NCBI GenBank assembly: GCA_965116925.1 | Contig: OZ220744.1 | Coordinates: 2,336,001 to 2,400,000 of the forward strand | Origin: Candidatus Poribacteria bacterium | GTDB taxonomy: Bacteria; Poribacteria; WGA-4E; PCPOR2b | Direction: 5' to 3' | DNA length: 64,000 nucleotides | Part shown: one piece after another, positions 36,001 through 42,000 of the stretch | Numbering within the stretch: the stretch's first letter is position 1 | Layout: each line of letters opens with the position of its first letter | Position numbers: made by a program

Positions 36001-39000
36001 GGACATCTTTGCCTTCAACCGTTGGATCTTGCGCCGATTCAATTTTTCCCTCTTGGGTTTCTATTTTGGGGATATATTTGTTCTTGTAGATGCTGCTATG
36101 TAGCAGACGCACCACTCCGCTGTAAAGGCTGCGCTCGTTCTGGAATCGCACCTCGATCTTGGCTGGGTGGACATTGACATCAACGTGCTGTCCATTCATT
36201 GTGAGGAACAGAAACGCGACGACATACCGATCCTTCGGGACCATAGATCGCATCGCCTCGTTGAGGGCTGCGCCAAGCACTTTGCTCCGGATAGGGCGCC
36301 GGTTCAAGAAAAAGAGTTGATAGTTACGGTTTGCCTTCGTAAAATCGGGTTTGCCGATAAAGCAGTGGAGATGAAGGTTCGGGAGATCGGCATCGAACTC
36401 GATCAAATTTTCGGCGAACTCTTTTCCATATAGGAGACGGATGCGTTCTATATAAGATTCACACGCTCGGACATCAATGAGAGAGCGATTGTTGTGCGAG
36501 AGGGAAAACTGGGTTTGCGGGTTAGCAAGCGCTGCCCACATCACCTGATTTGTGATGTGATTCAACTCTGTCGCATCAGTTTTGAGGAATTTCAGCCGTG
36601 CTGGTACGTTGAAAAAGAGGTTATTGACCGTGATGTGTGTCCCCGGCGAGCAACCGCTTGCCTGTACAGGACGAATCACACCACCTTCGACGGGGATCTT
36701 TGTGCCTTCGACTGCGTCGAGGGTTCGTGTCAGCAGTTCAAACTGGGATACTGACGCTATACTCGGAAGTGCTTCCCCACGAAATCCGAACGTTTGGATA
36801 GTTTCTAAATCTTCAACGGTGTTGATTTTACTGGTTGCGTGGCGTTCTATAGCGATGAGCGCGTCCTCACGGCTCATGCCTGCGCCGTTATCTGAGACTG
36901 AGATGATTCGCTTGCCACCCGCCCGGATTTCGACATTGATTTTCGTGCTCTCGGCGTCGATTGCATTTTCGACTAACTCCTTAACCACGGATGCCGGACG
37001 TTCAACGACCTCGCCGGCGGCAATTTTGTTCGATATGTCAGGGGGTAAGATCCTGATTGGCATGGTCAACTCCTAATACGTGAAACGTGAAACGTAAAAA
37101 GTATGGCTCATGTTAAGAAAGCGTGCAACAGCAACCGAGTTTTCGTAGGGGTTGGGTCACCCAACCCTTACTACGGGCGGGGAAACCCCGCCCCTACGAT
37201 TTCGTTCATATTTTGCACTTTCTTTTTACATGAACCAAAAGTATATTAACGCAAGTTACCACATGTGCTCCGCTGGGGTTTTGATAGTTCTTCAGTAATC
37301 AATATCAATCTTCTTGTGATTCGATATAGATACGTAACACTGCGTTCATTTTTACTAGGTACTGGTCATCCGTTTTCTCGAACCATTCCAAGACTTCCCT
37401 ATCCACAGGAATCAAGGCATACTTTCCACCATTTGCTAACAACTCACCAATTGTCTGCTCATCCTCCCACAGCATCTCTCCATTGGCATAGATAGCCCGT
37501 TTGAAACGGTTCAATTCTGTCTCGGTTAGTGGTTGAGCATCAGGGTCAGACTGAGCCGTTTTGTATAGGTCTTCGTCCGTCATCTTGTCAACCCGCTCCC
37601 AATCGGTCTCATCAATCTGCCCTTCAATTTCGTCAAGGGTATATGAGGAGATATTTTCGTCTTTCATCTTTCGTTGCCTTTCTCGCTGAAATGATTCGGA
37701 TGTTCCGGTTACGCAGGGTATAAACTACCTGTAAAATTCTGGATTCTATTCGTCCAATCGCAATCCGTCGTTCCTCACCATAGTCGTTTCGATTATCTTC
37801 CCACTGTAGCACTTGACCGTTGAAAATCGTTGCAGCTTTCCGAAAGCTGATACCATGTTTTTGAATATTTTGTCGGTTTTTTCGTTCGTCCCATTCAAAG
37901 GTGATTGGCATAATGAGATGAAGCAGTGTGGCGGGAGAGGGTGGGAGTCGAACCCACCTACCCACTTGCATGGGCAAGCTGGTTTTGAAGACCAGTAGAG
38001 CCACCGGACCCTATCCCCTCCCAGATAGAAATTTAGACAAAATTTGTTTAATTCACCTGAATTTTCCCATTTTTCCCGTGAAATTGTAGGTTTTCCCGAT
38101 TGAAAGAAGATGCTTGCTACGCTCGACGTTGAGATTTTCGTAGCCGTCGGTGGTTTCCTTCGCGGATTGTCAATCCTTGCCCGTCGCAGTATTCGAGAAA
38201 CGGCACAGCGTATTTCCTGCTGGTTTGTGCGAGCTCTCGGAATTCGGCAACGGTTATTATATCATTTTTCTGGAGGTAATCGGTAAGCGAATTCACAATT
38301 TCTTCAAACATTTGGGTATGAATAAATAGGTCATCTGCAATTCTAATGAATCGTCCGAGGTTCATCAGCGCGTAAAAGGTCTGCTGCACTGACTGCGGCG
38401 GATATTCAGACAGTTGGGCAGTCAATTCAGTCATGGCTGGGGTATTTATGCCAGCGTCGAAGAAGATTTTTTCGATTTTTTCCTTGATATCTTCCTCCTC
38501 TCCTGAGAATTGGATTTGATGCGACGATAGGCGTAGTAGATTCCCATCGGTGATAATCTCTTGCTGGCGAACTAGTTGATCGACAATTTTCTCAAAGCCG
38601 ATTTCGTCGAGTTTGAGTTGGAGACGGAGTTGCGAGGTGTTTTGACCGGGGGCGAGCGGTTGATCTTCATGGAAATTTGCTAGCGCGTTAATCAGACTGG
38701 CTTGTGCTTGTTCTGTCCGATCCATCGCAGAAACGAGTGGCGTGGCTCCCGGCCAACGTACAATTTCTTGATGGTCCTCAAGATCTTTTAGTAACCCTCT
38801 GAAATCTGCATCGGTATAAGGGAGGTAGTAGCGGAGAAATTCTTCTGGCACGCAGAGTTCACGGTTTTGTGCCAATACCAATCTCACAACTTCGGCATCA
38901 TCTGCGTCTTCCCACACTGTGAGGGTTTCCAGTGTCTCTTCCGTGAATCGTTTGTGGCGTGGAGCGAATGGGTTAATCACTCGTCCGCCGCCGACCGTAT

Positions 39001-42000
39001 GTTGGGCGGAGAAATCGCGCACGATAAACCGATCTCCCTTGAAGGTCAAAATCGGTTTCTCAAGGCGTAGCTGGAGCTGCGTCGAATCCCCCGGCAGAAC
39101 CCCTTCGTCCATCAGTAGGATTGCGCGGCAAAATGTCTCGCTTGTTCCGAGATAAAACCGTAGGCGCGTCCAGTGTTCAAGCATTCTTGGGAAGGATGAC
39201 AGGAGGTTAAGTGACACGTCAATATTGTCTGTGACCTCTGAAAATCCGCTTGGACAGAGTACATTCCCCCGTTCAATTTGGTCTTTGGTGATGCCTGACA
39301 GATTCAACGCTGTCCGTTGTCCTGACTGTGCGTTTTCCGCTTGTTCATTGTGAACTTGGACGCCGCGGACACGTACCTCTTGTCCTTGGGGTAGCATGAC
39401 GAGCCGTTGTTCGCGTTGGATTGTGCCGCCCATCAGCGTGCCTGTCACTACCCCGCCGAACCCTGTCATCGAAAAGACGCGGTCCACATATAGGCGTGGG
39501 ATTCCATTATGCCGCTCTGCTTGCGCCTCCGTATTGACACACGCCACGATTGTACTCTTGAGTTTATCTAAGCCGTCGCCTGTTATCGCTGAGACATGGA
39601 CGGTGGGTGAGCCTTCGAGGGTTGTTCCGACCAACATCTCTTGGGACATTTCGGCGGATTCCGCCAGCTGGTCGGGCGTCACCAGATCCACCTTCGTCAT
39701 GACGAGGATGCCGGTCGAAATGCCGAGTAGATCGAGGATCTCCAGATGTTCCAGCGTCTGTTCCTGTACACCTTCTTTTGCATCAACGACAAGCAGCACC
39801 ATGTCCATCCCGTACGCGCCTGAGAGCATGTTTCGGATAAACCGCTCATGTCCGGGGACATCAACGATTCCGGCACGCGAACCGTCCGGCAGATCGAAGT
39901 AGGCGAAACCCAACTCGATTGACAGACCGCGTTCTTTCTCCTCTTTGAGCCGATCGGTTTCGATGCCGGTGAGGGCGTGTATCAGAGCGGATTTCCCGTG
40001 GTCAACGTGTCCGGCGGTGCCGATGATGATATGTCGCATGGTATCCTATTCTTTCTAAGTCGAATGGTTCAATCCCCCTTGAAGTTGTTCCATCACACCC
40101 TTTGCTGCTTTGACGATCCGCTCCAGTTCTCCTTCAAACACTGTCCGAACATCGAACCGGAGTCGCTCGTCCTGTACGCGGCCAATTATGGGTTTCGGTT
40201 GCGCTCGGAAGTGTGCCGCGAGGGTTTCGGTGGAGATTTGCGGCGCGTGTAGGCTGACAGCTAGACTCGGTAATGTATCGACGGGTAGCGAACCGCTACC
40301 AATCTGTGCGGTGCTTTCTTCAACCGTAACTTGGATTACGTCATCGAAGATTTGCCGGAGATGATTGGCGAGTTTTTCAGCGACCTCACGGATCTCGGCT
40401 ATTGGTCGCGTGTAACGCTGAAGCATTGGTAGTTTTTCGGTCAGTTCCTTTTCGTTAAGGTAGAGCCGTAGGGTGGCTTCGAGTGCAGCGATGGTGAGTT
40501 TTCCGACGCGCAACGCTCGCATCAATGGATTCTTGCGAATTTGCTCGATTGCGTCCAACCGACCCACAATAATCCCCGCCTGCGATCCGCCGAGCAGCTT
40601 GTCACCGCTGAATGTGACGACATCGACACCGGCATCTACCCGCTCGCGTACCACCGGCTCATGGGGCAAACCGTAACGGGTCAGATCAATCAACGAACCG
40701 CTTCCGAGGTCCTCCATCGTTGGTATGCTGTGTTGACGTCCAAGTTCGGTGATTTCTTCCATTGTGGGGGTTGAAGCGAATCCGACGACCTTGTAGTTGC
40801 TCGGATGTACCTTCAGCATCAATGCCGTGTTTTCGTTGATTGCGTTCTCGTAATCTCGAAGATGTGTTCGGTTTGTCGTCCCTACCTCGCGCAAAATGGC
40901 TCCGCTCGCCTCCATCACATCGGGGATGCGGAACGCCCCACCGATTTCAATGAGTTCGCCGCGGGATACGATGACCTCTTTATCGCGTGCTAAGGTATTC
41001 AACGCCAGTAGTACAGCTGCTGCGTTATTGTTCACGATTGTTGAGGCTTCGCATCCCGTCAATCGCTTCAACAGGGGTTCCGTCAGTCGGTCTCGGTGCC
41101 CACGCCCACCGGTATCCAGATCGTACTCCAGATTCACATAGTTAGCAGCGGCTTGCGCGAGGCTTTCAGCTGCCGAAGCACTGAGCAGTGATCTGCCAAG
41201 GTTGGTGTGTGTGATTGTGCCGGTGGCGTTGACAATTGAACGGAGTGCGGGAGCGGTTAGGGTTCCAAGTTCCGCTCGGACGAGTGCTGCATACACCGAT
41301 TCATCGGGAGGTTCCGCGATTTTTTCGTTAAGGATTTGCCCCCGAATTTCCGCAGTGACGGTGCGTAAAGCCTCCGTTATGAGATCTCGCGAATAGTTTT
41401 CCTGCATTCGGAGAAACGGTTCGCGGGAGAGCAACTGTTCAATGGCGGGGATGCGGCGTAAAGCCTCACCCTGTTCTGGGGTTAATTTTTTTGCCGGCAT
41501 GTTTTTTTAATCCATGTTAAATTCACCGCAGAGGCGCAGAGTGCACAGAGTTTTTCTTGTTTTTCTCCGTGTTTGCTTTGGTAAAATTGTTGTCCTCAGA
41601 CATCAAACAGGTTGATAACTTTTACTGGCTTCCCTGTTTCTGCGGACTCCACGCCTGCGACCAAGGCTGAAACGGTTTTTGCGCCTTCGCGGACATCAAT
41701 CAGTGGTTGTGTTCCATTAATCACGCAGTCAACGAAATGGGAAACTGTTTCCTGAATTGCATCTCCATCGTCTGCGACAATCTCTTCTGTGTGACCATCG
41801 GGATGGTGGATACGGTTTTTCCAGATCGTTCCTTCTGTGCCGTAGATAGAAAGAAACCCCTCACCCATCCCGCGACCTTTGCAGCCGCTGGTAACAAGCA
41901 CTTTACCGACGCAGCCATTCTCAAACTGAAAGGTGAAGATGTAACAGTCATCGAGCGGAAAATCTTGTGCGGCGTACCCGTTGGAATAGGCGTGGACCTC

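Follow-up and report, generated by a model that had tools for sequence, protein, structure and literature searches.

The window, a 64,000-nucleotide stretch of a Candidatus Poribacteria genome, carries a selenocysteine (Sec) tRNA gene beside selB and selA, and this locus raises the question of whether the organism decodes UGA as Sec and, if so, in how many genes. A first-pass annotation had placed the three genes at one locus; ARAGORN, Rfam and the TIGR models agree on this, with exact coordinates (Table 1). Together the genes form a single compact minus-strand unit, in which tRNA-Sec lies downstream of selB, 94 nt from its stop codon. SelB aligned to TIGR00475 over residues 4-634 with 373.6 bits (cut-off, 242.25), and its C terminus holds the winged-helix domains PF09106 and PF09107, which serve SECIS binding in bacteria. 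SelA scored 607.4 bits against TIGR00474 (cut-off, 267.9) and 531.6 bits against PF03841, with PF12390 also matched, and is above the cut-off in 118 of 121 sampled genomes of the phylum. We consider it highly probable that the window contains the standard bacterial Sec-insertion operon selA-selB-tRNA(Sec) and that the genome decodes 24 UGA codons in 23 genes as Sec.

Table 1. Positions of the Sec-decoding genes in the window and of selenium genes elsewhere in the genome
Feature	Position	Strand	Model or remark
tRNA-Sec (selC)	window 37929-38022	-	94 nt; anticodon UCA (TCA in DNA); ARAGORN
Rfam RF01852 match on tRNA-Sec	window 37933-38022		76.6 bits (gathering 47), E 5.7e-14
selB	window 38117-40039	-	Sec-specific elongation factor, 640 aa; TIGR00475, PF00009, PF25461, PF09106, PF09107
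selA	window 40055-41500	-	TIGR00474, PF03841, PF12390
selA, selB and tRNA-Sec as a unit	window 37929-41500	-	
selD	genome 6018508-6019659		sole SelD copy of the genome
senA-egtD	genome 879420-881897		

As in the E. coli-type Sec system, all four parts, SelA, SelB, SelC and SelD, are present, all above curated cut-offs. SelD would produce selenophosphate, SelA would convert Ser-tRNA(Sec) to Sec-tRNA(Sec), and SelB would bring the latter to UGA codons with a SECIS hairpin downstream; the gene content thus predicts Sec insertion into protein at TGA codons. In contrast to the E. coli-type gene order, selA, selB and selC are compact here and selD is 3.6 Mb away beside senB, and SelD itself contains Sec. 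The motif ..KTCG-U-AAKV.. previously proposed for SelD was borne out, as the TIGR00476 alignment (375 bits; cut-off, 125) spans residues 42-348 and includes U51 of the UxxK site.

A read-through scan of the 6.47-Mb genome, which is one closed contig and 99.1% complete, recovered 24 in-frame TGA codons in 23 ORFs. The scan relied on a start codon and on coding signal to either side of the TGA, so a Sec close to a terminus, or one in a family lacking homologues, could escape it. This independent scan agrees with the earlier figure of at least 22 selenoprotein genes; all genes legible in that annotation reappeared in it, together with five more that may figure in the annotation's missing end: SelW-like, ArsC-like, AhpD-like and two thioredoxin-like proteins. 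The set accepted here comprises 23 genes and 24 Sec codons. The thiol-type redox proteins are four AhpC/TSA-like proteins, a tandem PrxQ with two Sec, the two thioredoxin-like proteins and the SelW-like, AhpD-like, ArsC-like and UGSC proteins; MoeB and a rhodanese belong to sulfur/selenium transfer, and FdhA, a standalone HMA domain and a MetE-like enzyme are metal-site proteins. The others are PrdB-like, DUF3179, two DUF4159, DUF5069, a SnoaL-fused UxxC domain and SelD. Twenty-one of the 24 TGA sites lie within a Pfam or NCBIfam alignment, and the three outside any such alignment (SnoaL-UxxC and both DUF4159) are spanned by paralogue or relative matches. The motifs fit Table 1 of a recent catalogue (PMC13188914), namely UHxP in FdhA, UxxK in SelD, UGSC, CxxU in the SelW-like and AhpD-like proteins, PxxxTxxU in Prx, and UxxC in the PrdB-like, ArsC-like and DUF3179 proteins. 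For MnmH/SelU, the tRNA 2-selenouridine synthase, TIGR03167 had no match in this 99.1% complete genome.

In the E. coli-type system, the SECIS element lies directly after the UGA; here, at group level, stable hairpins follow the UGA codons. The mean minimum free energy (MFE) of the 60 nt from the TGA was -15.7 kcal/mol at Sec sites, compared to -9.6 kcal/mol for 449 ordinary TGA stops (p 4e-9) and -12.4 kcal/mol for 600 Cys codons (p 1.8e-4), a comparison that holds at group level. In all 23 Sec forms of the MetE-like gene, a 5-bp stem carrying a GGU or GUU loop lies 17-29 nt past the codon; of the 43 Cys forms, 26 have the stem and 11 such a loop. Raw MFE within this family ran in the opposite direction (Sec forms, -18.4; Cys forms, -24.1), which we attribute to their differing G+C content, 0.60 and 0.69, respectively. 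Judged from these folds, the hairpins are putative SECIS elements.

Conservation of the TGA among relatives was analyzed for 18 of the 23 genes; FdhA, UGSC, SelW-like, ArsC-like and AhpD-like, and SelD beyond its own genus, are assigned by family models and motifs. Matches over the Sec site of the 18 genes all keep the TGA, bar one DUF3179 match (24 of 25 orthologue matches retain it) and one HMA match (10 of 11). Retention was complete for SnoaL-UxxC (7/7, with identity as low as 37%), full-length PrdB-like matches (17/17), DUF5069 (5/5), the tandem Prx gene (13/13) and SelD (16 of 16 Poribacteria loci), and the AhpC-like and thioredoxin-like genes likewise keep it in the relatives tested. 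The TGA is found in 5 of 5 rhodanese and 5 of 5 MoeB orthologues and is absent from four and five Cys paralogues, respectively, and DUF4159 gave seven matches with TGA compared to zero for the Cys paralogues. Relatives keep the TGA in all families tested, among them the MetE-like, DUF4159, SnoaL-UxxC, DUF5069 and HMA genes for which this had been stated earlier.

These data bear on the possibility that the in-frame TGAs arose by nonsense mutation or faulty assembly and the genes are pseudogenes or truly split. A Uma2-family ORF fits this description, as its TGA (985341) lies within the domain and paralogues show a gap, Ala or Arg there, and two of the accepted genes have same-genus support only. 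In the accepted set, orthologues from up to five genera share the TGA, at identities as low as 37-70%; homology continues undiminished past it, e.g., 87% identity across the DUF4159 site; and the sites hold only TGA, never TAA or TAG, and align with Cys. Same-genome paralogues have Cys at 12 TGA sites by residue-level alignment (MoeB paralogue, 66% identity; DUF4159, 87% and 82%), a level of resolution that applies to these 12 sites and the MetE-like family, the others being candidates for such a pair, in part by family motif. With the same pipeline, a paralogue alignment spanning the stop with Cys at that position was found for 12 of 488 TGA, 1 of 458 TAG and 2 of 657 TAA candidates, so the TGA/Cys pairing exceeds chance. 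Likewise, the AhpC-TSA domain was matched 20 times in the genome, 6 times with an internal TGA and never with TAA or TAG; at a true gene boundary serving as control, the relatives had four TGA and five TAA. Given also a genome assembled as one contig, decay or misassembly is largely refuted as the general cause and appears very improbable. Reassignment of TGA genome-wide to Trp or Gly (genetic codes 4 and 25), instead of site-specific Sec, could be proposed from a few repeat-family ORFs whose paralogues have Trp opposite the TGA (2118634 and 4383525). It is refuted by stop-codon usage, since TGA ends 1696 of 5400 mapped genes and 479 of 1589 longest ORFs; moreover, the accepted sites pair with Cys and not with Trp or Gly, and the full Sec machinery is present. 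We give this reading practically no weight.

A further alternative grants the Sec system but holds that the selenoproteome comprises only about 15 to 20 genes, with the weakest candidates (those with TGA 4721121 and 5526204, one DUF4159 copy and some genes outside the comparison of relatives) being recent decays or ordinary stops. The 4721121 and 5526204 genes were indeed matched in only one same-genus genome of five, six genes are assigned by family models and motifs, and the hairpins are a group-level signal, with a weak fold at one site (1526837, -7.9). Against this, both same-genus TGAs lie within Pfam domain matches, and the TGA and the downstream frame are kept at 95% (4721121) and 84% (5526204) identity; the gene with the weakest fold retains its TGA in five of five genera; and the six genes score above curated family cut-offs, NCBIfam itself calling three of the models "(seleno)protein". 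A smaller set is thus unlikely, and the full set of 23 genes remains our preferred reading.

Of the uncatalogued families described below, the MetE-like one is the most striking. At its site FGFHL[U/C]RGNQ, 66 of 80 loci were resolved, with 23 TGA and 43 Cys codons; a single genus contributes 16 of the 23 Sec forms, so these are not independent. Within a 31-genome sample of the phylum, the Sec form was confined to its own genus, and the Sec/Cys pair also occurs in at least six other groups (Acidobacteria, Caldilineaceae, Anaerolineales, Chloroflexota, Nitrospinota and Methylomirabilota). The protein matches PDB 1YPX, a putative vitamin-B12 independent methionine synthase family protein, over residues 5-368 (E 1.8e-50), with both the His-x-Cys motif and the later Cys of SPQCGF aligned; unlike in 1YPX, Sec stands in place of the His-x-Cys cysteine, in a motif that binds zinc in MetE structures. 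MesD (3RPD) gave a weak match of 29.8 bits. In Poribacteria, the MetE-like gene has a fixed place immediately upstream of selD(Sec)-senB. We offer only tentatively, and with considerable doubt, the idea that the three genes form a selenium-handling module in which the MetE-like enzyme carries out methyl transfer on a selenium compound; it might release selenide from methylated selenium and supply it to SelD, or it might Se-methylate a product. If true, this step would connect the scavenging of selenium with the making of both selenoproteins and selenoneine in a dominant lineage of sponge symbionts.

The selenoneine genes reported earlier are present, SenA scoring 511.8 bits against NF041186 (cut-off, 420) and SenB 402.6 bits against TIGR04348 (cut-off, 300); EgtD, for hercynine supply, scored 364.5 bits against TIGR03438 (cut-off, 290.9). 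With selD 4 nt upstream of senB, SelD together with SenA-EgtD should supply selenoneine synthesis too, and selenoneine production is predicted from these sequences. SenB was found in 13 of 41 sampled genomes of the phylum, all within two families; the trait is therefore not phylum-wide. The Variovorax paradoxus cluster is described, in the available portions of the sources, as senC-senB-senA (10.1101/2022.04.13.486033; PMC11237966). Here, too, SenB and SenA are above equivalog cut-offs and a SelD-type synthetase adjoins SenB, but the cluster is split between selD-senB at 6.02 Mb and senA-egtD at 0.88 Mb, and the genome's sole SelD, the SelD/SenC protein, carries Sec.

The claim that this is one of the larger bacterial selenoproteomes holds in part. 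The 23 genes exceed the threshold of at least six that defines selenoprotein-rich bacteria, which fall into three mostly anaerobic groups according to the accessible part of PMC5029168, but they number under half of the published maxima given in the accessible part of a 2026 review, at least 57 in the Olavius algarvensis Delta-1 symbiont and 63 in a Methylomirabilota MAG (PMC13188914). Those two genomes share with this one a large number of selenoprotein genes, and Delta-1 is a marine-invertebrate symbiont, as the present organism may be; as far as the same source goes, they differ in that their sets are of anaerobic respiratory and methanogenesis type, whereas the selenoproteins here are mostly redox proteins and the genome encodes a haem-copper oxidase. 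A single subunit I of this oxidase (510 bits) supports the aerobic capacity that had been claimed. As aerobic bacteria rarely retain selenoproteins by the account excerpted from that review (PMC13188914), the combination, in one closed genome, of a haem-copper oxidase, 23 selenoprotein genes and a selenoneine pathway is a clear counter-example to the mostly anaerobic pattern, and selenium becomes a candidate limiting micronutrient for the lineage.

The proposed novelty of selenium dependence in sponge symbionts is reduced by a 2017 report of SelA/SelB enrichment in sponge-symbiont bins (PMC5649159, in its available part). Most families here are known marine selenoprotein families, as tabulated in Table 1 of PMC13188914. 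The Sargasso Sea and GOS surveys (PMC1088965, PMC2398784) share with this genome, in the portions available, Prx, Prx-like, AhpD-like, ArsC-like, UGSC, MoeB, rhodanese, SelW-like, DUF3179, PrdB-like, SelD and thioredoxin-like proteins with the same Sec motifs; here, by contrast, the families occur in one closed genome, of a phylum unnamed in those portions. The 2026 catalogue of 119 families lists the families of 18 of the 23 genes and not the two-Sec form of the tandem Prx (PMC13188914). By the terms searched, at least four families are absent from it: DUF4159, DUF5069, SnoaL-fused UxxC and the MetE-like family, with its Sec at the His-x-Cys motif and its link to selD-senB; the standalone HMA domain was not listed either. 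These uncatalogued Sec/Cys families are open to biochemistry.

Gene prediction that uses an ordinary stop-codon table splits or truncates about two dozen redox and metal-site proteins in these genomes. The warning that poribacterial database proteins are affected has indirect support: for the MetE-like query, the 120 best-matching database proteins are full-length and share no more than 79% identity with it, and MetE-like ORFs in 16 Poribacteria genomes are 83-91% identical after TGA read-through.

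The selenocysteine (Sec) machinery of this bacterium lies in the window as a single compact unit, in which selA is followed after 15 nt by selB and selB after 94 nt by tRNA-SeC. SelA (481 aa) scored 607.4 bits against TIGR00474 (cut-off 267.9) and SelB (640 aa) 373.6 bits against TIGR00475 (cut-off 242.25), the latter comprising an EF-Tu GTPase domain, the SelB beta-barrel and two SelB winged-helix domains; the 94-nt tRNA-SeC, with anticodon TCA, matched Rfam RF01852 at 76.6 bits (cut-off 47). The profile and tRNA matches thus agree with the coordinates and gene names assigned to this locus by the first-pass annotation. 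The window holds machinery only, with none of the 24 accepted Sec sites inside it. Elsewhere in the window, a full-length match to Rfam 5_ureB_sRNA was detected (83 bits, gathering score 40); RNAs of this family lie opposite ureB, in antisense orientation to its 5' part, and the match presumably only marks a conserved urease gene.

The window corresponds to positions 2336001-2400000 of one contig of 6,471,377 bp (49% G+C, no N), a genome rated 99.1% complete and 2.7% contaminated. An in-frame hexamer coding score was trained on 1589 long ORFs, and a greedy gene map yielded 5400 genes; an in-frame TGA counted as a candidate if it had an upstream start codon, was flanked on either side by coding signal and overlapped no rival gene in a different frame. 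Motif guided the choice of 24 sites from the candidate lists, and 16 others with high scores served as tests. The accepted sites fall in 23 ORFs, confirming by an independent scan the earlier observation of a Sec system with at least 22 selenoprotein genes. Of 121 genomes sampled in the phylum, 118, representing 18 of 19 genera, had a SelA above cut-off.

Coordinates of the Sec machinery, accepted Sec sites (contig position of the TGA) and other features; genome positions count along the whole contig, and L numbers are our handles for loci
Feature	Position	Strand	Motif or remark
selA	window 40055-41500	-	
selB	window 38117-40039	-	
tRNA-SeC	window 37929-38022	-	
MutL	window 35195-37069		downstream of Sec unit
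Two dehydrogenase genes	window 41596-43566		upstream of Sec unit
5_ureB_sRNA match	window 56535-56832	-	
DUF3179	150426	-	WUPLC
HMA	519567	-	GMTUGGC
SnoaL + C-terminal domain	629035	-	UPKC
PrdB/GrdB-like	671329	+	UPLC
AhpC/TSA-like	996697	+	WUGSC
AhpC/TSA-like	1526837	+	WUPNS
UGSC	1886420	+	UGSC
AhpC/TSA-like	2098070	+	UPHC
FdhA	2541663	-	UHAP
SelW-like	3628640	-	CSAU
Thioredoxin-like with TPR	3775202	+	WUGFC
Rhodanese-MoeB	3981055	-	
DUF4159	4148848	+	
DUF4159	4169844	-	
ArsC-like	4380106	+	UTSC
AhpD-like	4704821	-	CRYU
AhpC/TSA-like	4721121	-	UPKD
One ORF, two PrxQ domains	4745540 and 4745993	+	FTGGUT in each
DUF5069	4898682	+	
Thioredoxin-like	5526204	-	WUGSC
Two-domain rhodanese	5599964	+	
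MetE-like	6017887	+	FHLU
SelD	6018658	+	CGUAAK
Tandem PrxQ ORF	genome 4745312-4746307	+	L018; Sec at peroxidatic position of each domain
MetE-like(Sec)-SelD(Sec)-SenB	genome 6017161-6020610	+	L022 3161-6610
SenB	genome 6019663-6020610		
SenA	genome 879420-880715		
SenA, EgtD, ProV-like ABC ATPase, fused substrate-binding/permease of betaine-transporter type	genome 879420-884222	+	L125
Uma2 ORF (rejected)	genome 985113-985568	+	L025; TGA 985341
..ETEFFLENSVS.. stretches	genome about 6015980 and 6018520		L022 about 1980-2040 and 4520-4560

When TGA was read as U, 21 of the 24 sites lay within a Pfam or NCBIfam alignment, the remaining three, in the SnoaL-fused domain and both DUF4159 genes, being outside any such model. 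NCBIfam cut-offs were exceeded by UGSC (NF041046, 161.5 bits vs 125), ArsC-like (NF041106, 126.5 vs 85), SelW/T/H (TIGR02174, 67.6 vs 34.2), AhpD-like (TIGR01926, 147.2 vs 81.8), FdhA (TIGR01591, 744.1 vs 666.25), MoeB (NF006444, 536.6 vs 449) and SelD (TIGR00476, 375 vs 125); for the PrdB-like protein, the TIGR04483 alignment covered the site with a score under cut-off (148 vs 300). Site-spanning alignments with paralogues in the same genome placed Cys opposite the TGA at 12 sites, i.e., HMA, two AhpC-like, one thioredoxin-like, MoeB, both DUF4159, both Prx domains, DUF5069, rhodanese and MetE-like. MoeB shared 66% identity with its Cys paralogue, and the two DUF4159 genes shared 87% and 82% with theirs at 4145367-4147661. 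In one pipeline, such Cys-at-stop cases numbered 12 of 488 for TGA, 1 of 458 for TAG and 2 of 657 for TAA. Among the 20 AhpC-TSA domain matches in the genome, TGA occurred in exactly the six accepted sites and TAA or TAG in none. The four glutaredoxin family matches contained no stop. With the 24 sites as queries, a phmmer search of all TGA-read-through ORFs revealed no further paralogous selenoproteins, and nothing convincing was found among candidates failing the overlap filter.

Among the 16 test sites, 13 (L18/S5, sigma/anti-sigma, two MR_MLE pairs, TdeIII/radical SAM and HPPK/helicase among them) had a TGA that fell outside domain hits or in the gap separating them, and two more were without a family; all 15 were rejected. 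The remaining one, the Uma2 ORF, was rejected as well: its TGA is inside the domain but at a non-Cys position, where the paralogues show Ala, Arg or a gap; it is likely a pseudogene, so an in-frame TGA in this genome is not always Sec. The TGAs at genome 2118634 and 4383525, in two repeat-family ORFs, stand opposite Trp in up to 13 paralogues and resemble nonsense mutations (TGG to TGA) within repeated elements. Weak Cys-aligned paralogue matches at 695419, 2377598 and 4582840 proved spurious on inspection, 2377598 being the stop of the oxidoreductase gene immediately upstream of selA within the window. Lastly, fusion of the pterin-binding/PF13769 pair (TGA 4271537) was rejected, since the relatives' stop was TGA in 4 and TAA in 5, a mixture that therefore marks a true gene boundary; because this control, under the same treatment, gave mixed stops, conservation of TGA in relatives discriminates Sec sites from boundaries.

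Conservation in relatives was assessed for 18 of the 23 genes, the other five (FdhA, UGSC, SelW-like, ArsC-like and AhpD-like) being accepted by family model and motif. In the phylum samples, 24 of the 25 DUF3179 orthologue matches with an identity of about 60% or more kept one TGA, and TGA was present in 7 of 7 SnoaL-UxxC matches (down to 37% identity), in 17 of 17 full-length PrdB-like matches and in seven DUF4159 matches including our own genome, with none in the Cys paralogue lineage. All 13 tandem Prx matches had TGA: ten carried a pair of TGAs in a single open frame, one carried three, and two single-domain forms carried one. The frame with the pair, shared by ten of the 13 genomes from the order, our own included, was kept at 52-99% identity. 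A second set of five genomes from five genera showed TGA in 10 of 11 HMA and 5 of 5 DUF5069 matches, in five rhodanese orthologues (absent from four Cys paralogues) and in five MoeB genes (absent from five Cys paralogues). For the AhpC/TSA-like sites, TGA was found in 5 of 5 matches (1526837), 6 of 6 over the domain (996697) and 2 of 2 (2098070), and for the thioredoxin-like site 3775202 in 5 of 7, the other two being distant Cys forms; 4721121 and 5526204 each had a single match, in a same-genus genome only, with TGA kept. The SelD TGA was present at 16 of 16 Poribacteria loci.

Predicted folding of the 60 nt from the TGA gave a mean minimum free energy (MFE) of -15.7 kcal/mol at accepted sites, compared to -9.6 at 449 ordinary TGA stops (Mann-Whitney p 4e-9) and -12.4 at 600 in-frame Cys codons (p 1.8e-4), and many predicted stems had short apical loops with GU. 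In the MetE-like family, raw MFE of Sec and Cys forms differed opposite to expectation; the Cys-form genomes are richer in G+C, and this confounded comparison was therefore replaced by a test of a specific stem and loop. All 23 Sec forms had an intact 5-bp stem, CAGCC/GGYUG, 17-29 nt past the codon, compared to 26 of the 43 Cys forms (Fisher p 2.3e-4), and its loop was GGU or GUU in 23 of 23 and 11 of 43, respectively; non-Poribacteria Sec forms alone gave 7 of 7 vs 11 of 43 for the loop (p 3e-4), these p-values being inflated by relatedness.

The MetE-like protein matched PDB 1YPX (E 1.8e-50), with Sec aligned to the Cys of His-x-Cys, a zinc ligand in MetE. Across 80 public loci, the codon was TGA in 23 and TGC/TGT in 43, with 14 not resolved by pattern; the Sec forms comprised 16 of 16 Poribacteria and seven MAGs (Acidobacteria, Caldilineaceae, Anaerolineales, Nitrospinota, Chloroflexota, Methylomirabilota and one unclassified bacterium). 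Among these loci, the gene order MetE-like, then selD (16 of 16) and senB (15 of 16), was found only in Poribacteria; selD also lay near one non-poribacterial Cys-form gene. The cluster is preceded by genes for an Amidohydro_2 protein and a DUF59-type FeS-assembly protein. Membership in the MesD/MesX system was rejected because of the Amidohydro_2 neighbour and a weak match to MesD (3RPD).

The 16 public sequences closest to the MetE-like gene, at 83-91% identity, have titles naming Candidatus or uncultured Poribacteria. When 5.8 billion database proteins were queried, the best 120 hits were full-length with at most 79% identity; the Poribacteria proteins are therefore missing there as whole proteins. 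This, together with the splitting of SelD into 50-aa and 317-aa pieces in our own table-11 gene map, fits the earlier warning that such proteins are truncated in databases. The true SelD start is probably the Met of MNLNKLSRK.., which makes Sec residue 21, because the short stretch ..ETEFFLENSVS.., which precedes selD and also follows the DUF59-type gene, has the look of an intergenic repeat.

SelD is the sole copy in the genome, and no selenouridine synthase was found there. Both selenoneine genes named in the first-pass annotation scored above NCBIfam cut-offs: senB, beginning 4 nt past the SelD stop (TIGR04348, 402.6 bits vs 300), and senA (NF041186, 511.8 vs 420). SenA is followed by EgtD (TIGR03438, 364.5 vs 290.9) and a betaine-type ABC transporter, which may serve to import or export histidine-betaine compounds; upstream of this locus lies a gene for an XdhA-like molybdenum hydroxylase. 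SenB was present in 13 of 41 sampled phylum genomes, all within two families.

According to a 2026 review, the largest bacterial selenoproteomes hold 57 and 63 genes, and aerobic bacteria rarely keep selenoproteins (PMC13188914); our genome has a single gene for haem-copper oxidase subunit I. Peng et al. call an organism selenoprotein-rich from six genes upwards and find such organisms in three phyla, 78% of them being anaerobes (PMC5029168). Poribacteria are named as one of nine phyla whose group 4 hydrogenases contain Sec (PMC13582414); no gene for such an enzyme was seen in our genome's TGA candidate lists. SelA and SelB are reported to occur together in the majority of sponge-symbiont bins and not in their relatives (PMC5649159); a literature search on selenoproteome and sponge yielded animal work only. 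Table 1 of the review (119 families) covers the families of 18 of the 23 genes. Under the terms DUF4159, DUF5069, SnoaL, PF01717, 'methionine synthase' and PF00403, no entry was found in that table (PMC13188914), which lists Prx with one Sec only and not the two-Sec form, nor do these terms appear in the deep-Sep paper; the supplements of the papers cited here may list more. The first-pass interpretation is supported, with its novelty reduced. This is an ordinary bacterial Sec system whose families are mostly known. What is new is the scale in this phylum and lifestyle, the selenoneine link and a handful of uncatalogued Sec/Cys families.

In a sister genus, SenB carried an in-frame TGA in three of four genomes (G003, G038 and G007; loci L126-L128), at the position where our own SenB and that of the fourth genome carry Cys. 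'SenB' is absent from the text of the 2026 review (PMC13188914). The site lies within the conserved stretch FE[VL]-C/U-V[IL]GHLRPVKDP, and the sister-genus SenB is a possible Sec-containing protein.
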